Positions 4,149 to 19,197 of a stretch of 64,000 nt of DNA are shown here, one piece after another. Every line of letters begins with the position of its first letter. Position 1 is the first letter of the stretch. Below the pieces are notes generated by a model. That model saw nothing but the letters and a program-made list of their open reading frames with translations, was not told the DNA's origin and made no database searches. This stretch comes from Endozoicomonas numazuensis. Lineage in GTDB: Bacteria > Pseudomonadota > Gammaproteobacteria > Pseudomonadales > Endozoicomonadaceae. A program made the position numbers and the translations under genes. The stretch spans positions 214,243 to 278,242 of the forward strand of contig NZ_JOKH01000006.1 in the NCBI RefSeq assembly GCF_000722635.1, in the 5' to 3' direction.

Positions 4149-5216
4149 CTACTCTGCAACAAAAGCCAGAAGCTCTTGAAGGCTGCCTTCACCTGTGATG
4201 GCGTTTAGAGAGCTGTAGACATCAGCACAATCACCATAAACACGGTTAAAGTTGTCACGCTGTTTTTCCAGAGCCTGTACAGCTTCTGTCGCATAATCTT
4301 CAGCGTACTTATTCACTGGCTTCAAGAAAGCAACAGAAAGTGAACGCGGTTGCTGGTCACCCTTTTCTGCCAATACATAGGACGCGTAAGCCCGACTGCC
4401 GAAACTGTTTTGCTTACCTTGTGGGGACACTTTAACTGCCGCTTCGGTTAATGCAGCAATGGCCTTATTAGCCAGCTCAATATCGCTATTCAGGTTTTCG
4501 ACCAACAGTTCTTTGTTGATACAGATGTATGAGTAGAACAACCCAGCGGCAAAACCTGTTTCACCAATATGAGCAGCACCGGCATCTTCACTGCCGTCAT
4601 TCAAATCATCAACAGCGGTAAAGTAGTCATCTTCGATAGTGACAGGGTGAACAGATATAGCGTGGGCGACCTGACAAGCCGCTTCTTGACCAAAATGCTG
4701 CTTGCCTTTTACTGCCAACATCCGACCAAACATTGCAATATCAACACAGTGACTATTTTCCCGCAGCAAGTTCAGCTCTTCTGTTTTAGGAGCCCTTTTT
4801 TCACTTAACAGGGCAGAAACCAGCTCTTGAACTGCGTTATATTCATCCCTAGATAAATGGACAGGTTGTTTTAAAATAGTTTCTTTATATGCATTCGTTT
4901 TATCTTTACCTTCGGTATCAGCAAAAGCAGAAGCTATCTCTTTACCCCATAAAACAGCATCTTTTTCCTTTATTCCATTCTCACTAAACTTTTTTGCCGC
5001 ATCATAACCCATGCGTTTTGTTCGAGTGCCAATATGGTTTCCTAAAGCACGTTCAAATAACTCTGATGTTTTCCAAGATCGCTTCAGGCTCTGGGAAGAA
5101 ACCCTGAGACGATCTGTGCCACCCATTTTGGCGGTTTTTGGCCGTCCAAGATCATCACGATTAAGGTTTGCGGGTGGGTAGGAAGTGAGCAGATGCAGTT
5201 GCAGAAAACGGCTCAT
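4149..5216 (-). CDS. cas7: Cas7e (CasC) Cascade backbone subunit
   Basis: 355 aa. MSRFLQLHLLTSYPPANLNRDDLGRPKTAKMGG is a typical Cas7e N-terminus. It sits between cse2 and cas5. Confidence 0.92.
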   Translation of the reverse strand: MSRFLQLHLLTSYPPANLNRDDLGRPKTAKMGGTDRLRVSSQSLKRSWKTSELFERALGNHIGTRTKRMGYDAAKKFSENGIKEKDAVLWGKEIASAFADTEGKDKTNAYKETILKQPVHLSRDEYNAVQELVSALLSEKRAPKTEELNLLRENSHCVDIAMFGRMLAVKGKQHFGQEAACQVAHAISVHPVTIEDDYFTAVDDLNDGSEDAGAAHIGETGFAAGLFYSYICINKELLVENLNSDIELANKAIAALTEAAVKVSPQGKQNSFGSRAYASYVLAEKGDQQPRSLSVAFLKPVNKYAEDYATEAVQALEKQRDNFNRVYGDCADVYSSLNAITGEGSLQELLAFVAE

Positions 5217-5252
5217 AATGATATCTCCTTCAAATAAAAGGTTAGTTCGCTA

Positions 5253-5798
5253 TCAGTCTTTGAATGCAGCGTAATAGTCACTGGCCCACCTTACAGCCAG
5301 CCGATCCTGAGGACGTGAAGCCGGTGCAAACCGGAACTCCCTGAGCCAGTGCAGGATGCTGTCGGCCAGAGAGAGAATATTCACCTTGCCACCGAGCAGA
5401 TCAACTGCGCGACAGAGGCGGGTAAAAAATTCCTGCTCAGTACGGCTTTTTTGTAACTGCTGAAATCTCAATTCACTCATGGGCACTTTGCCGCCTTTTT
5501 CCTTTGGCTTTGCCAGGCTGGTTGCAAAGCTCTGTTCTGGTGAAGCGTCTTTCACCCGGGCAAGCACAGCGGCTACCATGGCTGCATCTGAAAAACCAAT
5601 TCCGGTCGCATCCGGTGCTACGCCCCAGTAACCCGGCATTTGCTGTAAAAAGCCAGCAAAAGCGGAAGTGAGTAATACATCATCACTGTTGGATACACGC
5701 CGCAACCGGGCTCGTTCTCCCCGATTGTCTTGCAGCGACTTATGCCAGGTTTTTAGTGCCTTTTGGTCGTTTTCATTTATTATGTGATAGGTCTTCAT
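5253..5798 (-). CDS. cse2: Cse2 (CasB) small Cascade subunit
   Basis: 181-aa ORF between cse1 and cas7, of the right size and position for Cse2. Its start overlaps the cse1 stop by 1 bp. Confidence 0.85.
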   Translation of the reverse strand: MKTYHIINENDQKALKTWHKSLQDNRGERARLRRVSNSDDVLLTSAFAGFLQQMPGYWGVAPDATGIGFSDAAMVAAVLARVKDASPEQSFATSLAKPKEKGGKVPMSELRFQQLQKSRTEQEFFTRLCRAVDLLGGKVNILSLADSILHWLREFRFAPASRPQDRLAVRWASDYYAAFKD

Positions 5799-7405
5799 TA
5801 AGCGACCTCCGGTTCTTTAGCTACTAATTCTTGCATTTTCTTAACACAAGGTATGCGATAGAAGTTTTTCTCTAGTGAATTTCTGGCATTGGCTATCCGC
5901 CTCATATTTTTTCCTTCAAAGTCACTGGTCAGCACTGTTTGATCAAACAACTCTGTATAGGTGCTTGAAATCAGTTGAAGCCAACTTTGTGCTACTTTTG
6001 AAGGGAAACGGTGATTATCAATACTATCTATAAGATCAGATAAATTTTTATAAAATTCAGTTTCAGCCATTTTCCAAAAGGCAAGTTCAAGATATTTAGT
6101 TTTCTTAAAAGCAGCTATAGCTTGCTTATTTCGTTCTCTTTCTGCTTTATCATTGCCCCACCACGCCTCAGAGACAGCAACGTACAGTTTTTCAATTGCT
6201 TTTTCAGTGACTTCAATGAGCATAAATGTCCACTCAGATAGTACCGTCTTTTTCTCATTTGCAACACGCAGTGCAGGTATTTTTTTATTTATGAAGCCCA
6301 GTACTTTGGCACTCTCTGCTCGATAACCAAAACACCACAATGAAAGGTCATCAATATTGCGCTCATAGAGAGCAAGCTGAACAACAACTGCTGGTGAGAT
6401 TTGTTTTCCCTGATAATGCATGCCGCACACAATTGATGGCCAATCGGAGAATCCGTAAGAAAAATCCACTCCTGCCAACGCCTTGGGGAATTTATTTTTC
6501 TTTTCTTCCAAAACATAAGGACTTAGTGGATGAACCCAGCCATCGGCGTAGAAAACACCATCTTTGATTCTTTTATAAGTTTTTACCCCCGTAGTAAGAG
6601 ACTCTCCTGAAATATCACAAAATCCGTTTACTTTCTCTACTTGCAAACAAATCCTTCTAGGTTGAGTCCAGTAATGCTGTAAAGGGTTTGTATCAGCAGG
6701 GGATGTTTTCTCTTTTTTAGGACTTATTCTCGTTTTCGTTAACCATGGAAAAATAAACTCGGCATTAGCTTTTTCCCAGTCTCCACGTATTAGAAAACCA
6801 CTTTCTCGATCAATAATGTTAAGCCAGAGTTTTTGCCACAATAAGGATTCATAGCCTGTAGTTAACAAAGTAGTTACAGGGCCATTGTGACGCAACCCAA
6901 TCCTGTGTTTTCCCCATGCTAAAACACCTGTTGTTTGTGTATCAAACAAAGCGATTGCAGCCCAATAAGGCGAAACAACCCTTGTTACTCCAGTTTTTAC
7001 AAAAAGGTCAGTATTTTTGTCTCTTGTATTAACGCTCAATTCTCCGCCAATAATATCCTCAATGGGTAAACTGTCCCCTTCAAAATCTTCAAAATCCTGC
7101 ATAAATGCAGGCCCATCGCTTATATCAATATTGAAAGCCTGCCTAACTGACTCAAAAGCCTTTTTAAGAACCTGTGCATCCGGAACAGTGTCCCAACACT
7201 CAAACCACGCCTCATCATCTTCCGGCGCGAAAGTAGTTTGCAAAAGTCCAATCAAGAACTGATACAAAGCGCCCTGAAAGTCAACCCTGGGGGCGTTGAT
7301 CTCAATCACAGGATTTTCGGTTTCGGCAATTTGCCAGGGAGCGATTTTACAGGGGCTGCCGTCTTGCCGGGTAACAGGCAACCACTGATCTGAAATAAGG
7401 TTCAT
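5798..7405 (-). CDS. cse1: Cse1 (CasA/Cas8e) large Cascade subunit
   Basis: 535-aa ORF that is the first gene of the Cascade operon, downstream of cas3. Size and position fit Cas8e. Confidence 0.85.
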   Translation of the reverse strand: MNLISDQWLPVTRQDGSPCKIAPWQIAETENPVIEINAPRVDFQGALYQFLIGLLQTTFAPEDDEAWFECWDTVPDAQVLKKAFESVRQAFNIDISDGPAFMQDFEDFEGDSLPIEDIIGGELSVNTRDKNTDLFVKTGVTRVVSPYWAAIALFDTQTTGVLAWGKHRIGLRHNGPVTTLLTTGYESLLWQKLWLNIIDRESGFLIRGDWEKANAEFIFPWLTKTRISPKKEKTSPADTNPLQHYWTQPRRICLQVEKVNGFCDISGESLTTGVKTYKRIKDGVFYADGWVHPLSPYVLEEKKNKFPKALAGVDFSYGFSDWPSIVCGMHYQGKQISPAVVVQLALYERNIDDLSLWCFGYRAESAKVLGFINKKIPALRVANEKKTVLSEWTFMLIEVTEKAIEKLYVAVSEAWWGNDKAERERNKQAIAAFKKTKYLELAFWKMAETEFYKNLSDLIDSIDNHRFPSKVAQSWLQLISSTYTELFDQTVLTSDFEGKNMRRIANARNSLEKNFYRIPCVKKMQELVAKEPEVA

Positions 7406-7559
7406 TACTCAGTACCTCTGTAAGCTTGTACAAAGATAGGCATTTTATTCATTTTGTTTCCTTTAATGCAGACATCCCTGTCTAAACTCACTGACGTTAT
7501 TTCTCTGATGCTAAGAGATGAACCGCTTAGCAGTTTGGTAAACAAAGTTGTTCCCTGCC
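7406..7559 (-). promoter_or_regulatory. cas3-cse1 intergenic region. Expected site of the Cascade operon promoter (in E. coli this is the H-NS/LeuO-controlled Pcas).
   Basis: 154-bp AT-rich gap between the cas3 stop and the cse1 start. No motif is confidently identified. Confidence 0.35.
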
Positions 7560-10274
7560 TTAGCAGGGTTTTCGTCCAAAATCCCAGCCACTTTGTGCCT
7601 GATACAGATGTTCTGTTTCAGGAACCAGGGGAAACATCTGAACATACTTTAAAGAAATTATTTCCTGTTTGAGTTGCTCTATGACAGGTAACCAGATTTC
7701 AGGAATCAGAGATCTGGCCTTTTCCCACTCATGGACTGGCAGTTGAATCTGGCTAAGCCGCCAGCGGTGGTTTGGATTTTCGTTTTCTGCCCAGGGCTTT
7801 AACTGGCCACTGTCGTCCGGCATCACCAGTACCACAGCGAGAGTTTCTACTTCATTGAGCCGGGTTGGGGTATGGATCTCTTCATCCCAGACATTGGCAG
7901 GGCCACCACTTTTCGAGGTGTAGCCCGGTTTCAGCTCAAGGCAGTTGAATTCACCTATATTTTTCCTGGATTTATCTTCCCCCTCTGCTTCAAAACTTTG
8001 CTGCTGCAGGCATTCTGGAATATCTGACTGTGCTTCATCGCCATAAACCCCCTCGATTAAACGCCGAGCATCTTCGGGCATAGCAAACCCTTGTTTTTTG
8101 AGAAGTAAACGCGCCGTCAACCAGAGCTGACCAGTGTGGAAATAAACGCTCTGGGTTCCGGGCAAGACAGACCTGAGCCATTGTTCACTATTTACTGAAT
8201 CCGGATCAGGTGAATGCAGGAACAGACAAGGCGGCGGGCGCTGGTCAATTTCATTTGTATTTAGCAGGTTCCCATGTGAATCACGGCTATGCCTCTGCAA
8301 ACGGCCTGCACGTTGAATCAGCAGATCAATAGGGGCCAGATCGGAAATCAGTTGATCAAAATCCAAGTCCAGACTTTGTTCTACTACCTGAGTAGCAATC
8401 AGCACCCGCCCTGCTCTTTGTTCTGCTCCAGATTTTTTACCAAACCGTTCCAACACATTGCCTTCAACAGTTTGCCGGTCAATCATGGCAAACCGGCTGT
8501 GAAATAAAGACAGGTTCTCAGAATCAATGCGCGGGTCATTCAAGAGTTGCTGATAGGCTGCCCGGGCATCTTTAACAGTATTGCGAATCCAACAGATACA
8601 ACGCCCCTGCGCCACTACTTGAGCAATTTGTTCAACCGCCTCTTCCGGGTTATTCACCCTTTTAACCTGAACTTTACGTTTTACGCTGTCACGGGTAGGG
8701 AGTGCCCGTTTATTAAACCCATGATCAGAGACATAGCTGACCAGCGGGTATTCTTCCGTCTCAGACAACCCAGACAATGGAAGCTCCCTGCCCTCAAGGT
8801 AAGCATCCAGCAACTCTTTGCGAAACTGAAACGGTAAGGTAGCCGACAGCAGGACGACACTGCCCCCCTGGGCAGCATGGAATTTTAACAGGGCGGTAAG
8901 GAGCTTCCGCATGTATGAGTCATAGGCATGCACTTCATCCAGTAGCAAAACCTTCCCCTTCAGCCCCAGCATCCTTAACGACTGGTGACGTGCAGGCAGC
9001 ACTGCCAGCAACGCCTGATCAATAGTGCCTATGCCGACATCAGCTAACAGTGCTTTTTTTCGGTTATCTGCTAACCATTGGTTGCAATAGGCACTGGCTG
9101 ACTGATCGCCAGAACCGTAATTATGATCATCTTCCTGCCCAGAAAGCTTCACTGATTCCTGAAACTTTTCGGATAACTGGCTGGCACCATGAGCAAGTAT
9201 CAAAGAGGGTTTAGGTTCTCCCTGAAACAGGGACTGATAACTCTTACTGAGTCGGTTATACATCCCGTTGGCTGTCGCCATAGTGGGCAAACCAACATAT
9301 AAACCTTCTGCCAGCCCCTGATTCATTAAACGATGAACCAGAACCATGGCCGCCTCTGTTTTCCCCGCGCCAGTAACATCTTCAAGAATAAATAACTGTG
9401 GACTTTGGGGAATATCTACCGTTTGTGCAAACTGCTGAAGAGGTGTCGGCTGCTCAATAAAATCGAACTGCTGTTTAATCGAAGAAAAAGGATTAATGGC
9501 TTTAGGTTGAAATTCAGCTTTTGTCAGAACTTCTTTTGCACGGGGCAGTGCCACCTTACTCCAATATTCCTGTAAAGATTGCCGGGTGCATTGGTATTTA
9601 AATACTGTTTGATCAGAACCCAACCAGTCCGCCAGGACTGCGACTCCGGCCAGTTGCCATGACGTTTTTCTGAAACGTTTTCGGCAAATTGTCTCCAGCG
9701 GAGAAAGATCAGGTAACCAATACTCAGCAGCGGCTCTGAAAAAAGCTTCGGCTGCTGGAATGTCTTCGTCAGGAACCAGAGATGTTGTTACAGCCCTTAC
9801 TAGTGGCTGTACTGGTTTCCCATGATGACCACAGACAATTTCCAGCCAGCCGTCAATATTACGCTGTGTTTTACCAACAGGGATAATATCGGTTAGTTTT
9901 TTTCGCAGCTCTTTTTGCCAGAGGCCATAGCCTAAAGAATCATGTCGAATCTGTTCATTATCAATTACAGCAAAGGGTACCAGATCATCGGATAACCCGG
10001 TCACCTTATTTTGAAAGCTCCGGGCAAATTTACCCAGATCGTGCAACATCAGACAAAAAGTGAACCATTGCTGCAACCATTCAGGCTCTACTTTTAACTG
10101 TTCAGCCAAAGATTTGCACAGTGTTTTTTGTGGGTCTAACAGACACCGTCCAACCGCAGCTACATCAAGACAATGATAAACCAGCAAGTGATAACTGTTT
10201 TTATCATCCTGATCTTTACTGGCTTTGCCCCAATAACGGTAGAAAGACATATTTCTTTCAACTCTATGTAGCAT
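7560..10274 (-). CDS. cas3: Cas3 HD nuclease / SF2 helicase (type I-E)
   Basis: 904 aa. The N-terminal HD motif is YHCLDVAAVG ... LHDLGKF. The helicase carries DEVH (LLLDEVHAYD) and a Walker A motif, GAGKTEAA. Confidence 0.95.
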   Translation of the reverse strand: MLHRVERNMSFYRYWGKASKDQDDKNSYHLLVYHCLDVAAVGRCLLDPQKTLCKSLAEQLKVEPEWLQQWFTFCLMLHDLGKFARSFQNKVTGLSDDLVPFAVIDNEQIRHDSLGYGLWQKELRKKLTDIIPVGKTQRNIDGWLEIVCGHHGKPVQPLVRAVTTSLVPDEDIPAAEAFFRAAAEYWLPDLSPLETICRKRFRKTSWQLAGVAVLADWLGSDQTVFKYQCTRQSLQEYWSKVALPRAKEVLTKAEFQPKAINPFSSIKQQFDFIEQPTPLQQFAQTVDIPQSPQLFILEDVTGAGKTEAAMVLVHRLMNQGLAEGLYVGLPTMATANGMYNRLSKSYQSLFQGEPKPSLILAHGASQLSEKFQESVKLSGQEDDHNYGSGDQSASAYCNQWLADNRKKALLADVGIGTIDQALLAVLPARHQSLRMLGLKGKVLLLDEVHAYDSYMRKLLTALLKFHAAQGGSVVLLSATLPFQFRKELLDAYLEGRELPLSGLSETEEYPLVSYVSDHGFNKRALPTRDSVKRKVQVKRVNNPEEAVEQIAQVVAQGRCICWIRNTVKDARAAYQQLLNDPRIDSENLSLFHSRFAMIDRQTVEGNVLERFGKKSGAEQRAGRVLIATQVVEQSLDLDFDQLISDLAPIDLLIQRAGRLQRHSRDSHGNLLNTNEIDQRPPPCLFLHSPDPDSVNSEQWLRSVLPGTQSVYFHTGQLWLTARLLLKKQGFAMPEDARRLIEGVYGDEAQSDIPECLQQQSFEAEGEDKSRKNIGEFNCLELKPGYTSKSGGPANVWDEEIHTPTRLNEVETLAVVLVMPDDSGQLKPWAENENPNHRWRLSQIQLPVHEWEKARSLIPEIWLPVIEQLKQEIISLKYVQMFPLVPETEHLYQAQSGWDFGRKPC

Positions 10275-10709: not shown

Positions 10710-10786
10710 TGGTAGGCGGTACTGGAGTCGAACCAGCGACCTTTACGATGTCAACGTAACGCTCTAACCAGCTGAGCTAACCGCCT
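10710..10786 (-). tRNA. tRNA-Val (anticodon GAC), CCA encoded
   Basis: The minus-strand sequence AGGCGGT-TA-GCTC-AGCTGGTTA-GAGC-G-TTACG-TTGACAT-CGTAA-AGGTC-GCTGG-TTCGACT-CCAGT-ACCGCCT-A-CCA folds into a perfect cloverleaf with a 7-bp acceptor stem, U33 and A37. Confidence 0.92.
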
Positions 10787-13823: not shown

Positions 13824-15017
13824 TTACCCTTTAACATTGACCACCTGTCTCAGGGTATGAACTACTTCCAGCAGATCGGTCTGGAGATCCATTACCCGAT
13901 CGATGTTTTTGTAAGCAGCCGGTATTTCATCGATAACGCCTTTATCTTTACGACATTCGATGCCTTCTGTCTGCTCACGCAGGTCCTTCTGGGTAAACGA
14001 GTTTCTGGCAGCGGTTCTGGACATGGTTCGTCCTGCACCATGGGCACAGCTACAGAATGATTCGGCATTCCCCTTGCCACGAATGATGTAGGAGCGAGCG
14101 CCCATGGAACCAGGAATAATACCCAGATCCCCTTCCCTGGCACGGATAGCGCCTTTTCGGGTCACCCAGACTCGGTCACCGTCGTGGATTTCACGCTCCA
14201 CAAAGTTATGGTGACAGTTGATGGCCTCACGAGTCACCGAAAACTTCTTGAGACGATGCTTCAATGATCGCAGTACGGCATTCATCATGTGCTCACGATT
14301 CTGCATGGCATAATCCTGAGCCCAGGCGACCGCTTCCACATAATCATCAAAGTATTCGCTACCCTCTTTCAGATAACCCAGCTCTTTATCCGGAAGATGG
14401 ATCTGGTGTCGCTCCATTTCCCTTCTTGCCAGACGAATAAAGTACTGACCAATCATATTGCCGATGCCACGACTGCCGGAATGCAACATCACCCAGACAT
14501 CGTCGTTTTCATCAAGACAGAGCTCGATAAAGTGGTTTCCTGAACCCAGGGTTCCCAGCTGACTGGCAAACTTTCGAGCATTACCGTGTCGGGAGATACC
14601 CGAATGCTTTTCCAGAATATGACTGAGCCTCATGGCCAGTGCTGAACCACCGGCCAGCTGCTCATTTTTATGGGCCCCACCCGCTCCCAGCGGGATGGTT
14701 CTCTCAATGTCATTCCGGATCTGATACAAGTTATCCGGCAGGTCATGCGCTTTCAGTGAAAGCCTGACGGCATTCATCCCGCAACCAATATCCACACCCA
14801 CAGCAGCGGGAATAATGGCATCGGTTGTAGCGATGACCGAACCCACAGTTGCACCCCGGCCCAGGTGGATATCCGGCATGCCGGCAACATGTTTGTATAT
14901 AAACGGCAGGCTGGCCACCCGACGCATCTGCGCCAGGGCTTCATGCTGTACCTCATCGGTCCAGATCTTAACCGGTTTTTGCTGATCCTTCGCGGCCAGC
15001 AGCGTGACTACAGGCAT
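13824..15017 (-). CDS. rtcB: RtcB RNA 3'-phosphate/2',3'-cyclic-phosphate to 5'-OH ligase
   Basis: 397 aa. HLGRGATVGSVIAT ... VGVDIGCGM ... GSGNHFIELC ... HNF are RtcB signature motifs. Confidence 0.93.
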   Translation of the reverse strand: MPVVTLLAAKDQQKPVKIWTDEVQHEALAQMRRVASLPFIYKHVAGMPDIHLGRGATVGSVIATTDAIIPAAVGVDIGCGMNAVRLSLKAHDLPDNLYQIRNDIERTIPLGAGGAHKNEQLAGGSALAMRLSHILEKHSGISRHGNARKFASQLGTLGSGNHFIELCLDENDDVWVMLHSGSRGIGNMIGQYFIRLARREMERHQIHLPDKELGYLKEGSEYFDDYVEAVAWAQDYAMQNREHMMNAVLRSLKHRLKKFSVTREAINCHHNFVEREIHDGDRVWVTRKGAIRAREGDLGIIPGSMGARSYIIRGKGNAESFCSCAHGAGRTMSRTAARNSFTQKDLREQTEGIECRKDKGVIDEIPAAYKNIDRVMDLQTDLLEVVHTLRQVVNVKG

Positions 15018-15850
15018 AATTGCTTTCCTTTTGCTGCCTCCCCTGTTTCAGGCCGGTCATGAACCCAGGCTTTAAACAGGGGATTTAAACGGTCTTCCTG
15101 TTCTTTATGAGCGGGTATCATCAAGGATTTTTCACTGCTTCCCAGTCGCTCCAGCTCTTTGACAAGAAATTCATTAATCGGGGCTATCGGGGTGGAATAG
15201 TCTGCCTCCAGAGAAGCTCTCTTCTTCTTGAGCAGCGCTTCTATAGAAGCCATCAATCCACCTTCCGACAACAAGCCCCTGGCCAGGGTTTCAAAATCCA
15301 GTGGCGGTATGGTGTAGTATGTTTCTATCCATTTCATACACAACACTGGCCTCAATACATAGAAGTATTTCTTTAGTCGAACCCTGTCACCTTTCAGGTA
15401 ATCCCGAAAATTACCATTAGCCATATGGAGATAGTGATAAAAGCCGGCTCTGGGCGAATAGTATTTATCCAGTACCCTGGTCATTGAGCTTCTGAAACTA
15501 CTGACCTCTTTGTAGACATAATCAGAATTCAGCCACTCCACCAGCGATGGATTGGACTTTTTCATCAGTTTGAGCGCCTTGCGAAGGTCCCAACCACTGA
15601 CATCCAACTCATCGGTGATCGGCTTCTCGATCACATCTCGCTTATGTTCGACATTGATCGTCAGATACCAGTCTGCGGGCCTGACATACAGGAATCGAAC
15701 ATCGTAATCGCTGTCTGGGGAAGCAAAACCCCAGGCCCGGCTTCCGGATTCACAGGCGTATAGCACTCGAACATTATGTTCTTTTTCTATGAGTGCAAGC
15801 TCTTCCAGAACTCTGTTTTTCATAGCTTTCATTGGATGACTCCTACCCAA
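15008..15850 (-). CDS. Minimal nucleotidyltransferase (Pol-beta superfamily, COG3541/PF10127-like) associated with RtcB operons
   Basis: YACESGSRAWGFASPDSDYDVRFLY is the GS-x9-DxD nucleotidyltransferase motif. It overlaps the rtcB start by 10 bp, implying co-transcription. Confidence 0.75.
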   Translation of the reverse strand: MGRSHPMKAMKNRVLEELALIEKEHNVRVLYACESGSRAWGFASPDSDYDVRFLYVRPADWYLTINVEHKRDVIEKPITDELDVSGWDLRKALKLMKKSNPSLVEWLNSDYVYKEVSSFRSSMTRVLDKYYSPRAGFYHYLHMANGNFRDYLKGDRVRLKKYFYVLRPVLCMKWIETYYTIPPLDFETLARGLLSEGGLMASIEALLKKKRASLEADYSTPIAPINEFLVKELERLGSSEKSLMIPAHKEQEDRLNPLFKAWVHDRPETGEAAKGKQLCL

Positions 15851-15854
15851 CCTT

Positions 15855-17030
15855 TCAACCCAGCCTGACGGTCTGTTTCATCAACTGGTCGATGCCACCG
15901 TAAACATTCAGGTTCTGAACTTTTTCAGACACCTTTTCCAAAGCTTCCAGCTCTTTTAACCGGAGCAGAATGGCGTTGTTCTCCATCATTTTCGCGGTAT
16001 TGTGCAGACTCCGGGTCGCTGCAGTTTCTTCCCTTCTCTTAATCACGTTCGCTTCAGCCGCTTTCTGGGCTTCAACCACCCGGTTGAGAATCGTCCTGAT
16101 CTCGCCGGGCAGGACAATATCCTTCACACCCACCCGCTCCAGCCGGATGCCTTCTGCCTCCAACTCTGCGACCACCTGATCTTTGACCGTGGTATTAATG
16201 TGCAGTTTGTCTTCCAGAAGCTGATCAAGTGTTCTTGTGCCTACCGCTTCACGCAGAGCTAATTGCAAAGCCCGGTAAGCAAATGCTTCGTGATCGGACT
16301 GACTTTCAGCCACCTGTCGTGCATCAACAATTCTCAAGCCCGCTGTCAGGTTGACCCGGATAGATACCCGATCTTTGGTCAGAATTTCCTGCCCTGACAC
16401 TTCCAGGGTTTTCTGACGCAGATCCAGCAGTTTGACTTCCATCTCATGATTGATCTGCCAGAAACCATAAAGACCTGCCTTCAACTCCTGCTGCAGAACA
16501 CCATCGACATACAGCATGCCTATGTGGCCTGCGGGGACCACAGATTCCAGAACAGGTACCTGCAAGCGACTACCGGGCTCCACCAGTAACCTTTGAGATT
16601 GATTGACGTTTCTGAGCCTGATTTCATTCAGTAAAGAGCGATCCACTTCCAAACCTTCTGAAAGCGACACCTTTTTTAACTCCAGTTTTCCGGCTTTTTT
16701 CCATACCAGAAGCGTGCCACCGGGAAAGGCAATGCCCTGCAGAACATCGTTGTGGTACAGCAGCCCTACTTCATTTTTGTCGACTCTCCATTCATGGAGC
16801 AGTTCGGCAATTTCCTGGTGATCCCGCACCATTTGCAGCGCACTGGGATCATCAAAGTAGAGATCATTGCTATCAAAGCTGTTGATCTCCAATGTGCAGA
16901 GTCTGCCGTGAACATGATGACGACCAGCCGACAGAACCTTTTCAAATTTTTTATTGCGATACAGTAAGGCCACTTCATTCTCGGCCACGGTAATCTGTTT
17001 GCCGAGCCAGGTGTTTTCTATAACTGCCAT
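15855..17030 (-). CDS. SPFH/band-7 (stomatin/prohibitin-like) domain protein. It is the first ORF of the rtcB operon.
   Basis: EAFAYRALQLALREAVGTRTLDQLLEDKL ... ILNRVVEAQKAAEANVIKRREETAA is a typical band-7 core followed by a coiled coil. The start is chosen at MAVIEN because GGAGG lies 8 nt upstream. The ORF track instead extends the start to 17084. Confidence 0.8.
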   Translation of the reverse strand: MAVIENTWLGKQITVAENEVALLYRNKKFEKVLSAGRHHVHGRLCTLEINSFDSNDLYFDDPSALQMVRDHQEIAELLHEWRVDKNEVGLLYHNDVLQGIAFPGGTLLVWKKAGKLELKKVSLSEGLEVDRSLLNEIRLRNVNQSQRLLVEPGSRLQVPVLESVVPAGHIGMLYVDGVLQQELKAGLYGFWQINHEMEVKLLDLRQKTLEVSGQEILTKDRVSIRVNLTAGLRIVDARQVAESQSDHEAFAYRALQLALREAVGTRTLDQLLEDKLHINTTVKDQVVAELEAEGIRLERVGVKDIVLPGEIRTILNRVVEAQKAAEANVIKRREETAATRSLHNTAKMMENNAILLRLKELEALEKVSEKVQNLNVYGGIDQLMKQTVRLG

Positions 17031-17225
17031 TTTCATTACCTCCAGCAGTTTGTTTTTTATCGAGAATAAACAGGGGCAACCCACTTGCCAGACATCAGCC
17101 TGCTCCGGGGTAAACTATCGGGAACCTTTCGGTTTGCGACGCATCATGCCGGAGCTGCAGACACCACACAGAGGTCGGTGCAGCTGTTAATTCATTAGTT
17201 TTTTGAGCAGGACATGCCTGCGAAT

Positions 17226-17297
17226 CATGGGTTACGTAGCGGGACTCGAACCCGCAACACGAGAAATAATTCCCTGCTATACCATTTAGCTATACGT
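17226..17297 (-). ncRNA. tRNA-like RNA (72 nt) with a complete acceptor, D and T arms and an encoded CCA, but a 4-nt loop where the 7-nt anticodon loop should be. Candidate tRNA mimic of Y-RNA/YrlA type in the rtc operon leader.
   Basis: Minus-strand read: CTACGTA-TA-GCTA-AATGGTA-TAGC-A-GGGAA-TTAT-TTCTC-GTGTT-GCGGG-TTCGAGT-CCCGC-TACGTAA-C-CCA. Every stem pairs (one C·A at 1:72 and one G·U). It lies between a sigma-54 promoter and the SPFH gene. Confidence 0.6.
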
Positions 17298-17400
17298 AGT
17301 AGTCAGGAGTCGAACCTGAGCCCTTGGGCTTTCCCATGTCAGCGGCGGAATACGTTTTGGCAGACCACACGCACCGGAGTGTTATTCGAAACACGTCAAA
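17298..17400 (-). other. Structured 5' leader of the rtc operon containing a second tRNA T-arm-like hairpin (CTCAGG-TTCGACT-CCTGAG) and a 5'-proximal hairpin (GTGTT-TCGAAT-AACAC). It does not complete a cloverleaf by eye.
   Basis: The reverse complement of 17300-17325 contains GGCTCAGGTTCGACTCCTGAC, a GGTTCGA T-loop consensus with a 5-bp stem. The element sits immediately 5' of the tRNA-like RNA and just after the predicted transcription start. Confidence 0.4.
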
Positions 17401-17416
17401 GCTGACGGCATAGGTA

Positions 17417-17433
17417 TTTCAAGGTGCGTGCCA
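17417..17433 (-). promoter_or_regulatory. Sigma-54 (RpoN) -24/-12 promoter for the tRNA-like RNA, SPFH, NTase and rtcB operon
   Basis: The minus strand reads TGGCAC-GCACC-TTGAA, against the consensus TGGCAC-N5-TTGCW. The -12 element has TTGA instead of TTGC. It is placed ~160 bp upstream of the divergent rtcR start, as in E. coli rtcR/rtcBA. Confidence 0.55.
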
Positions 17434-17595: not shown

Positions 17596-19197
17596 ATGAC
17601 TAAAAAGAACGTAGTGATCAGTATCCTGGGTGTTATTAAAGACAATAAAGGCCGGGGATCAAAGCGCTGGCAGACTTGGCGCCCCAATGTCAGTCTGGTG
17701 ATGCAGGATGATTTCAAGGTTGATCGCCTGGAGCTGCTTTATGATCCGGAGTACTTCAGAATGGCCGGCAAGGTGGTGGCTGATATCCAGTCGGTATCGC
17801 CTCATACCGAAGTGGTTCTGGTTGAAGCCCCCTGGGCAGACCCTTGGGATTTTGCTGAAATTTATGGTTGGTTCGATCAATACACCCGGCACTACCCGGT
17901 TAAAACCGAGAGTGAAAACTATTTCCTGAATATCACCACCGGAACCCACGTTAATCAGATCTGTATGTTTCTGATCAGTGAGGCCCGTTTAATTCCTGCC
18001 AGCCTCCTACAGGTTTCTCCTGACTTAGACGCAGAAAACCGGGCTGTCGGCACCCTGAGAATCATCGACCTGGATCAGGCGAAATACGATGCACTGGCCA
18101 GCCGCTATCAAGAACAGGCGCAAACCGGCCAGGACTTTCTGAAGTCCGGCATTAAAACCCGAAACGCTGCATTTAATACCCTGATCGCAGAAATTGAGCA
18201 GGTAGCCATTGCTTCCTCAGACCCGATTCTGCTGGAAGGCCCCACAGGTGCGGGTAAAACTCAGTTAGCTCGAAGAATCTATGAACTGAAAGCCAGTCGA
18301 AATGATGTGATGGGCAAATTTGTATCCGTCAACTGCGCTACCTTGAGGGGTGATGGGTCTATGTCGGCCTTGTTTGGTCACAGCAAAGGGGCCTACACCG
18401 GAGCCCAGCAAAGTCGGGAAGGTTATTTGAAAAATGCCCACCAGGGGATTCTGTTCCTGGATGAAATTGGCGAGCTCGGTCTGGATGAGCAGGCCATGCT
18501 GCTGCACGCCATTGAAGAAAAGCGCTTCTACCCGGTGGGCAGTGATAAAACCGTGTTCAGTGATTTTCAACTGCTGGCAGGGACTCACCAGGATCTTCAG
18601 CAGGCGGTCATTAAAGGCACTTTCCGGGAAGATCTAATGGCCCGTATAAACATCTGGAGCTGGAAACTGCCAGGACTGACCGAACGACTGGAAGACTTTG
18701 AACCCAACCTCGATTTTGAACTGCAACAACACGCGCGACAAAAGAACAAACAGGTGCGCTTCAATAAAACGGCTCGCGCCGCTTATATGCGGTTTGCCAC
18801 CCAACCGGATAGTTCCTGGTCATCCAACTTTCGAGACCTGACGGCCAGTGTGAATCGAATGGTAACGCTGAGCGAGGGTGGTCGAATCAATGAAGAGAAC
18901 GTCAACAGAGAAATCTCTCGTTTACAGCAACGCTGGCAACCGGCCAAAAACCAGCATGACTCCTCAGTAGAATTGTCCGATTATCTGAGCGAAGAGCAAC
19001 TGACTTCAATTGATCAGTTTGATCAGTTGCAACTGGTTAATGTCATACATATATGCCGACAATGCCGCTCCATGGCAGAAGCTGGCCGCAGGTTATTTAA
19101 TGTCAGCCGATCAGAGAAAGTCAGCAGTAATGACTCTCACCGGTTAAGAAATTACCTCTCACGGTTCGGATTAACATTCAAAAACATAACTGAATAG
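17596..19197 (+). CDS. rtcR: RtcR, a sigma-54-dependent transcriptional activator with an N-terminal CARF domain
   Basis: 533 aa. MTKKNVVISILGV ... GRGSKRWQTWRPN ... DRLELLYD ... HITTGTHV parallels the E. coli RtcR CARF region. It is followed by a AAA+ module (LLEGPTGAGKTQLARRI; GAYTGA) and a C-terminal HTH. Confidence 0.92.
   Translation: MTKKNVVISILGVIKDNKGRGSKRWQTWRPNVSLVMQDDFKVDRLELLYDPEYFRMAGKVVADIQSVSPHTEVVLVEAPWADPWDFAEIYGWFDQYTRHYPVKTESENYFLNITTGTHVNQICMFLISEARLIPASLLQVSPDLDAENRAVGTLRIIDLDQAKYDALASRYQEQAQTGQDFLKSGIKTRNAAFNTLIAEIEQVAIASSDPILLEGPTGAGKTQLARRIYELKASRNDVMGKFVSVNCATLRGDGSMSALFGHSKGAYTGAQQSREGYLKNAHQGILFLDEIGELGLDEQAMLLHAIEEKRFYPVGSDKTVFSDFQLLAGTHQDLQQAVIKGTFREDLMARINIWSWKLPGLTERLEDFEPNLDFELQQHARQKNKQVRFNKTARAAYMRFATQPDSSWSSNFRDLTASVNRMVTLSEGGRINEENVNREISRLQQRWQPAKNQHDSSVELSDYLSEEQLTSIDQFDQLQLVNVIHICRQCRSMAEAGRRLFNVSRSEKVSSNDSHRLRNYLSRFGLTFKNITE

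Follow-up and report, generated by a model that had tools for sequence, protein, structure and literature searches.

The 64,000-nucleotide (nt) stretch of Endozoicomonas numazuensis DNA that was analyzed here (contig NZ_JOKH01000006.1, positions 214,243 to 278,242; hereafter the window) encodes a 72-nt element with the fold of a transfer RNA (tRNA), located upstream of, and on the same strand as, the gene for a slipin, a protein with an SPFH/Band-7 domain. We demonstrate that this element is a genuine cloverleaf RNA, competent to adopt an L shape, that does not decode, and that its homologues precede slipin genes in three classes of proteobacteria. We are highly confident that it belongs to a class that was predicted in 2016 as b7a-tRNA, short for "band 7-associated tRNA", as that prediction is summarized in bioRxiv 10.1101/312249. 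The combined reading, in which the element is a b7a-tRNA and its RNA acts in trans in a ribonucleoprotein with slipin, is the one that we favor by a small measure; the trans-acting mechanism as such is offered as a tentative proposal, held at somewhat less than even weight. The element is located as follows:

17228..17299, minus strand: tRNA-like RNA gene, very probably of the b7a-tRNA class, 72 nt including an encoded C-CCA

Read on the minus strand from 17299 to 17228, the element begins with CTACGTA, which pairs with TACGTAA in an acceptor stem of 6-7 base pairs (bp) that carries the mismatch C1·A72. The nucleotides U8 A9 precede the D arm (GCTA-AATGGTA-TAGC, with the GG dinucleotide), and a single A leads into an anticodon arm (GGGAA-TTAT-TTCTC) made up of a 5-bp stem and a loop of 4 nt (TTAT). 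These are followed by a variable region of 5 nt (GTGTT), the T arm (GCGGG-TTCGAGT-CCCGC), the 3' strand of the acceptor stem, the discriminator C, and CCA. The set of elbow nucleotides, as read from the sequence, is complete: U8, A14, G18G19, U54 U55 C56, A58, and G53-C61. An earlier note on this DNA had placed a minus-strand cloverleaf of 72 nt at 17226-17297; every piece that it listed is present, but the coordinates had to be shifted by 2 nt.

The element was reported by ARAGORN as tRNA-??? with a 2-nt "anticodon", drawn as a 4-bp stem with a 6-nt loop. When the 64-kb window was searched with the Rfam tRNA model (RF00005), the element scored 46.4 bits (gathering score 29, E = 1e-6) with 3 positions of the anticodon loop deleted from the alignment; apart from it, the window has a single tRNA match, to an ordinary tRNA-Val (10713-10786). 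The minimum free energy (MFE) structure of the 72-mer calculated with ViennaRNA is the exact cloverleaf, with the 5-bp anticodon stem and a UUAU tetraloop, at -20.2 kcal/mol. The z-score of this energy is an unremarkable -1.38, and thus the stability of the 72-mer proves nothing by itself. The cloverleaf was also recovered without the use of a tRNA finder, by applying RNAalifold to the leaders of three Endozoicomonas species that had been aligned by their flanking sequence. The anticodon arm of a decoding tRNA, with its 7-nt loop, U33, purine at position 37, and 3-nt anticodon, is not what is found in the element. The proposal that its noncanonical 4-nt loop precludes decoding is borne out by the UUAU loop of the MFE structure and by the 3 deleted positions.

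The distribution of the element was determined from an alignment of slipin homologues, which provided 80 loci in gamma-, beta-, and alphaproteobacterial reference genomes and 3 Endozoicomonas loci, or 84 sources with the window. ARAGORN located tRNA-like genes upstream of slipin, on the slipin strand, in 64 of 81 regions. A covariance model (R1) was constructed from 75 elements found by ARAGORN, and at a threshold of E < 1e-3 one or more matches were obtained within about 1 kb upstream of slipin, on the slipin strand, for 80 of the 84 sources. The window element, whose sequence was part of the training set, scores 67.1 bits against R1, and its 4-nt UUAU loop is also seen in the R1 alignment. 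The elements end mostly 140-490 nt from the slipin start, with a few at distances of up to about 1 kb. One copy was found in 49, two copies in 21, and three copies in 1 of the 71 sources that were tallied, and in most cases the copies of a tandem are only 0-3 nt apart.

The cloverleaf is supported by covariation. Within the cloverleaf, 94.3% of the paired cells are complementary, versus 34-43% when the partners are slid by 1-3 columns, a pairing figure that is inflated because the sequences of this alignment (A4) are ARAGORN or covariance-model matches and were preselected for cloverleaf shape. In the same alignment, compensatory changes occur in 20 of 21 pairs, all four stems covary, and the covariation score of 0.727 (0.185 in shuffles) was matched by 0 of 500 shuffles. 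The anticodon stem is 96% paired, and across three Endozoicomonas compensatory changes preserve it (GGGAA/TTCTC, GAGAA/TTCTC, and GGAT/ATCC). Conservation at orthologous loci and compensatory base changes had been named in the earlier note as a check on its reading, and the 80 sources and 20 pairs given above provide both.

The D and T arms, loops included, have a high information content in the alignment, and the acceptor and anticodon arms have a low one. Comparison of close relatives shows almost no variation in the acceptor, D, and T parts, whereas the anticodon loop varies freely in sequence and in length. The leaders of two Enterovibrio norvegicus strains are 90.8% identical, and their 71-nt elements differ at 2 positions, both of which are in the anticodon loop. 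In strains of Pseudoalteromonas luteoviolacea and in Endozoicomonas, the changes and indels cluster in the anticodon loop, the anticodon stem, and the variable region. As judged from these patterns of substitution, the D/T elbow and the overall shape are shown to be under purifying selection that is stronger than that on the surrounding leader. The identity of the anticodon is not conserved among orthologues, whose loops range from 4 to 9 nt and differ between strains. Because the anticodon loop is free in both sequence and length, the RNA is not a decoder. The turnover of the loop could reflect either relaxed or diversifying selection.

By locus, the elements at L020:4640-4710 and L021:4640-4710, from strains of one species, are identical outside of the anticodon loop. 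In the closely related loci L012, L016, L018, and L019 (near 4706-4781) the loop is either 8 or 9 nt, and in the more divergent L013 and L022 it is 5 nt.

The element is coupled to slipin rather than to the repair genes. Searches with tblastn found it immediately 5' of slipin in either operon order, RtcR<>tRNA-slipin-(RlaP)-RtcB, as in the window, or RtcR<>RtcB-...-tRNA-slipin. Neither rtcB nor rtcR was found within 21 of the loci, 12 of which contain the full 5 kb on both sides, and the five of these that were checked with Pfam have unrelated neighbors only. Since the element stays with slipin in both operon orders and also where no rtcB was found, the conserved unit consists of the tRNA-like element or elements plus slipin. 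The element had originally been framed as a leader element of an rtcB operon, a description that has to be given up: across 83 related loci it tracks slipin and not the promoter or rtcB. The tRNA-like/slipin pair appears to be an autonomous module.

No rtcB, rtcR, or rlaP lies within 5 kb of the tRNA-like/slipin pair at L041, L046, L054, L062, and L069 (slipin near 5001), where the neighbors include a permease, a lipase, LysR, an MCP, an HNH endonuclease, and an FtsH-like AAA/M41 protease. In eight unrelated genomes, 3-18 canonical tRNA genes are arrayed directly beside the module (L033:6983-10694, L037:3058-3787, L041:878-3827, L045:2829-3669, L055:32-971, L071:3906-4431, L075:3163-3723, and L079:153-2031). 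In Anabaena, the repressor TrcR coregulates a 26-tRNA array, rtcB, and a slipin gene (PMC10272220). These arrangements hint at a wider link between arrays of spare tRNAs, slipin, and RtcB.

The features of the family were counted on 88 distinct elements (alignment A6). Anticodon loops of 7 nt are found in 57 elements; loops of 4 nt occur in 4 elements, that of the window among them, loops of 5 nt in 11, of 6 nt in 7, of 8 nt in 5, and of 9 nt in 2, and the length is other than 7 nt in 31 of the 88. Of 86 elements, 51 have a mismatch at the 1-72 pair, most often C·A (14 cases), which is also the mismatch of the window. The CCA is encoded in 18 of the 88 elements, as compared to about 1.6% expected by chance. 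Loops of 7 nt are found in 20 of 25 elements of the RtcB-first class, in 22 of 26 of the stand-alone class, and in just 17 of 43 of the slipin-first class to which the window belongs. The short loop of the window is therefore a trait of its clade and not a singularity, and the peculiarity that had been seen in the 4-nt loop disappears in a clade where loops of 4-6 and 8-9 nt are common. A Met-like loop (CTCATAA) occurs at at least 11 loci with different acceptor stems, in the RtcB-first and stand-alone classes.

The genes around the element were identified with Pfam, for which the eight neighboring proteins were scanned. The features of the locus are the following:

17596..19197, plus strand: RtcR, a CARF-type sigma-54 enhancer-binding activator (Pfam RtcR and Sigma54_activat), divergent
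17418..17433, minus strand: sigma-54-type promoter-like site TGGCACGCACCTTGAA, between the divergent rtcR and the operon
17300..17412, minus strand: structured upstream leader domain, conserved in three Endozoicomonas (alignment A2, 86% identity; RNAalifold)
17207..17221, minus strand: hairpin GCAGG-CATGT-CCTGC, 6 nt past the CCA, with a stem that is conserved and a loop that is variable in three Endozoicomonas
15855..17030, minus strand: slipin (SPFH/Band-7), 391 amino acids (Pfam Band_7, E = 1e-30)
15008..15850, minus strand: RlaP nucleotidyltransferase (PF10127; Pfam E = 4e-89)
13824..15017, minus strand: RtcB RNA ligase (Pfam RtcB, E = 9e-130)
after RtcB, minus strand: uvrB

The 3' end of the element (17228) is 197 nt 5' of the slipin ATG (17030) on the same strand, and the start of rtcB overlaps the end of rlaP by 10 nt. 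No TROVE/Ro60 domain was detected by Pfam among the eight neighboring proteins, and there is no rsr in the operon. The genomic context given in the earlier note (RtcR, a sigma-54-like promoter, an SPFH gene, a nucleotidyltransferase that is now identified as RlaP, RtcB, and no rsr) thus agrees with the Pfam assignments and with the match to the promoter consensus.

The identification of the element as a b7a-tRNA is based on the combination of a tRNA-like fold, adjacency to a Band-7/SPFH gene, an RtcB repair neighborhood, and homologues at the same position. The window element has every feature that is stated for the class in the preprint's summary, and no class-defining difference from that summary was apparent. 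The proposal that the locus represents an undescribed variant of the Rtc RNA-repair system consequently fails, inasmuch as this summary dates the prediction of the class to 2016, and the window element is typical of its clade. Rfam 15 contains no dedicated b7a-tRNA family, and only its generic tRNA model matches. An abstract by Burroughs and Aravind from 2016 is said to refer to "SPFH/Band-7 modules" with "a novel tRNA-like molecule". For a specialist in RNA repair the picture is unchanged by our comparative results, at least relative to the class as summarized in the preprint: the element is a real feature, correctly read, of an already predicted class. What has been gained are comparative constraints, namely, that the element tracks slipin rather than RtcB, that the elbow is conserved, and that the anticodon loop is free. 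For the study of how bacteria use tRNA mimics in RNA repair, this element is handy since it has free acceptor ends, an encoded CCA, and an anticodon arm reduced to a stem and a tetraloop.

In the preprint, b7a-tRNA is considered functionally analogous to YrlA, and the two are reported to swap protein partners at times (bioRxiv 10.1101/312249). YrlA and YrlB are bacterial Y RNAs (RF02553) from the rsr-yrlBA-rtcBA operon (Chen et al. 2014, PMC4201824). Like them, the window element is a tRNA mimic inside an RtcR-controlled RNA-repair operon, and it shares with YrlA the conserved D and T arms, the tertiary contacts of a tRNA, the lack of a functional anticodon loop, and a location beside the gene for a presumed protein partner. 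However, YrlA has a circularly permuted layout, in which the acceptor stem is closed and the 5' and 3' ends form a Ro60-binding helix, whereas the window element has free acceptor ends and CCA, and its partner gene is slipin, not rsr. A crystal structure of YrlA exists, and we know of no effector. Relative to a canonical tRNA, the element has the cloverleaf, U8, A14, G18G19, the equivalents of T54-Psi55-C56, A58, the 5-nt variable region, and CCA. It differs from a canonical tRNA in the loop of 4 nt (6 nt according to ARAGORN) with no U33/anticodon/R37 register, in C1·A72, and in an "anticodon" that is not conserved.

The SPFH protein of the window is 100% identical to a "slipin family protein" of Endozoicomonas numazuensis and has no N-terminal hydrophobic or membrane segment. 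The AlphaFold model (predicted local distance difference test score, pLDDT, 85) consists of approximately 160 N-terminal residues of predicted beta-repeats, an SPFH domain, and a long C-terminal helix. The SPFH domain and the long helix resemble those of the cage-forming stomatin, HflK/C, and prohibitin, and the major vault protein alone among solved structures could be aligned over the full length of slipin (411-470 columns, E 1e-11 to 1e-8). The model is suggestive of a soluble, vault-like slipin assembly. A scan for relatives of slipin in viral contigs found none.

In the mechanism that we propose, activation of RtcR would lead to transcription of the element together with the operon. The element would then be excised by the tRNA-processing machinery, with cleavage by RNase P at the 5' end, trimming at the 3' end, and a CCA that is either encoded, as here, or added. 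The suggestion of RNase P follows the precedent of YrlA from M. smegmatis, which is cleaved by RNase P and to which CCA is added (PMC4201824). The excised RNA would act in trans as a tRNA mimic with a soluble, cage-type slipin, in a pairing that may parallel that of Y RNA with Ro60 or of vault RNA with the major vault protein. The locus resembles the vault particle and Ro60-Y RNA, both of which are built from a cage or ring protein and a small structured RNA, in the genetic coupling of such an RNA to a putative cage-type protein. Because the anticodon loop is reduced, uncleavable, and unconstrained, the most plausible job for the RNA would be that of a decoy or competitive inhibitor of tRNA-targeting nucleases or toxins, and such a role, which the earlier note had also raised, matches the one proposed for YrlA, that of a competitive inhibitor of an anticodon nuclease (PMC7790460). 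Alternatively, the RNA might have an adaptor role and recruit RtcB and RlaP to damaged tRNAs. Characterized homologues of RlaP add 1-2 nucleoside monophosphates to an RNA 3'-OH or to the 3' ends of damaged tRNA (PMC12776372).

A bolder form of this proposal, to which we assign a distinctly low probability, is that the tRNA-like RNA and slipin constitute an autonomous, mobile, vault-like particle in which a soluble SPFH cage would contain 1-3 L-shaped RNAs with uncleavable, fast-evolving loops. Damage to tRNA would induce the particle, which would either soak up tRNA-targeting toxins or hold broken tRNAs and present them to RtcB and RlaP. If this is true, the turnover of the anticodon loop would be an arms race and not neutral drift. 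Cooperation of the RNA with a Band-7 protein is already part of the 2016 proposal, as it is summarized in the preprint; a demonstrated particle, the decoy mechanism, and the independence from RtcB would be new.

It is conceivable that the element is instead a cis-acting processing or "punctuation" signal, at which RNase P and the 3' enzymes cut just upstream of slipin and from which the excised RNA is without function; the cut would set the 5' end, the stability, or the translation of the slipin mRNA. In every case the element indeed shares a strand with slipin and lies 140-490 nt 5' of the slipin start, even when it is between rtcB and slipin, and the tandem copies abut in the manner of polycistronic tRNA precursors (gaps of 0-3 nt). 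The conserved parts, the acceptor stem and the D/T elbow, are those recognized by RNase P, and the anticodon loop is free. However, the anticodon stem is dispensable for RNase P, and yet it is kept by compensatory changes (96% paired overall, and in the Endozoicomonas trio). The presence of 1-3 copies and the encoded CCA in 18 of 88 elements (about 1.6% by chance) suggest that the product matters, and a 1-72 mismatch in 51 of 86 elements is unlike an optimized RNase P site. We regard a purely cis-acting signal as unlikely, if still worthy of consideration. The element could also be, along the lines of the earlier note, a sensor or substrate, cut by anticodon nucleases or otherwise processed to fragments with cyclic phosphate ends that bind the CARF domain of RtcR in a positive feedback loop. 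RtcR is activated by tRNA fragments with 2',3'-cyclic phosphate ends (PMC7790460), and in the window the element is downstream of a predicted RtcR-dependent promoter. Feedback on RtcR is weakened as a general function by the 21 loci with the tRNA-like/slipin pair at which no rtcR or rtcB was found (12 with full 5 kb flanks). The 4-nt loop (5-6 nt in relatives) removes the usual target of an anticodon nuclease, and for YrlA, the analogous RNA, no fragments were detected in Salmonella (PMC7790460). Such a ligand source is, in our estimation, very improbable.

Two other explanations were rejected. According to the first, the locus encodes a YrlA-type Y RNA, whose permuted tRNA-like module would combine the D arm with the upstream T arm and with flanking stems. 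A weak RF02553 match at 17248-17349 (28.8 bits, E = 6e-4 in a 1-kb search) speaks for this, as does the occurrence of YrlB and YrlA in Rtc operons, with a lone T arm in YrlB (PMC4201824). The match is far under the gathering score (69), lacks the acceptor-like hairpin in its alignment, and is due to a lone T-arm hairpin at 17303-17319. In E. arenosclerae the upstream GGGAA pairing with TTCTC is lost, whereas the local anticodon stem covaries, and membership in the YrlA class is therefore rejected as exceedingly improbable. The element also has free ends and CCA, the operon has no rsr, and the Ro60-binding motif GNCGAAN0-1G was not seen when the leader was inspected by eye; the free ends and non-YrlA topology that had been assigned to the element are borne out, the free-ended cloverleaf being the form favored by the MFE fold of the 72-mer and by RNAalifold. 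The other rejected explanation, the chance presence of a tRNA gene that is either a decayed pseudogene or a spare copy in working order, would account for the match to the generic tRNA model, for the many relatives with canonical 7-nt loops (with the Met-like CTCATAA at at least 11 loci), and for the loci with large arrays of real tRNAs beside the module. A spare tRNA is contradicted by the 4-nt loop, which rules out decoding here, and by "anticodons" that differ between strains of one species. The position before slipin is conserved across three proteobacterial classes, and this position, together with the purifying selection on the body of the RNA and the compensatory changes in its stems, excludes a pseudogene; the residual probability for either form is negligible.

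Several observations weigh against a conserved b7a-tRNA that functions with slipin, in addition to the preselection of the aligned sequences. The MFE fold of the full 388-nt leader does not keep the whole cloverleaf. We take this for a limitation of folding one sequence at a time, since RNAalifold does recover the cloverleaf from three species. The four exceptions among the 84 sources are Aliiglaciecola L001 and L017 (the closest relatives outside of Endozoicomonas) and Mangrovibacter L068, all three of which lack a full cloverleaf, and one truncated contig. Some lineages can therefore dispense with the RNA or replace it. The class is a prediction that "has not been validated experimentally" (bioRxiv 10.1101/312249), and later experimental work on the expression, processing, or binding of b7a-tRNA was not found in the literature. 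Finally, a physical contact between slipin and the RNA is something that we infer purely from the linkage of their genes.

An Rfam scan of L001, L017, and L068 returned nothing at E <= 0.1. In the Aliiglaciecola loci (L001:4700-4760 and L017:4698-4758), just a GNRA hairpin and a T arm are left, with no D arm. This unit of a GNRA hairpin and a lone T arm may represent a minimal, or else an alternative, version of the RNA.

The remainder of the leader contains additional conserved features. The sequence TGGCACGcaccTTGA at 17418-17433 (minus strand) is the only match in the window to the sigma-54 consensus TGGCACG-N4-TTGCW with 1 mismatch. It is located about 119 nt upstream of the element and is conserved in the leaders of Endozoicomonas and Aliiglaciecola, and we take it to be the probable promoter of the operon. 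A second site, TGGCAAGTGGGTTGCC at 17075-17090 (minus strand), 45 nt before the slipin start, fits both the sigma-54 consensus with 2 mismatches and a weak hairpin that is followed by a T-run. As a second sigma-54-like or terminator-like site it was rejected: chance gives approximately 10 two-mismatch matches per window, and the site is not conserved in E. arenosclerae.

The upstream leader domain (17300-17412) contains a long-range helix (GTCAGC/GCTGAC) around two hairpins, then a hairpin AGCC-NNNN-GGCT, and it ends in the isolated T-arm-like hairpin (T)CAGG-TTCGACT-CCTG(A) at 17303-17319. The model R1 matched the T arm alone in this domain (12.4 bits). The domain is probably a reduced remnant of, or a partner to, the distal tandem copy that is found in relatives. 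Another possibility, suggested by the lone T arm of YrlB (PMC4201824), is that the domain is a YrlB-like partner. The hairpin at 17207-17221 has no U-run and is thus not an intrinsic terminator; a terminator scan did not call it. When the 197-nt spacer and the upstream leader domain were compared with all of the loci using nhmmer, nothing convincing was obtained outside of Endozoicomonas, and a megablast search of complete E. coli genomes with the operon gave no match.

The operon of the window (13824-17030, minus strand) does not include rtcA, and a fragment of an ISL3 transposase is found near the locus at window positions 20823-21245 (plus strand). In a metagenomic relative that is 93% identical (L082), the operon is riddled with insertion sequence elements (534-2333, 4859-5788, and 7252-8505), and rlaP is cut short. 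A more distant Endozoicomonas locus (L083) contains slipin-RtcB-RtcA-RlaP and an HD-domain gene, with three copies of the tRNA-like element.

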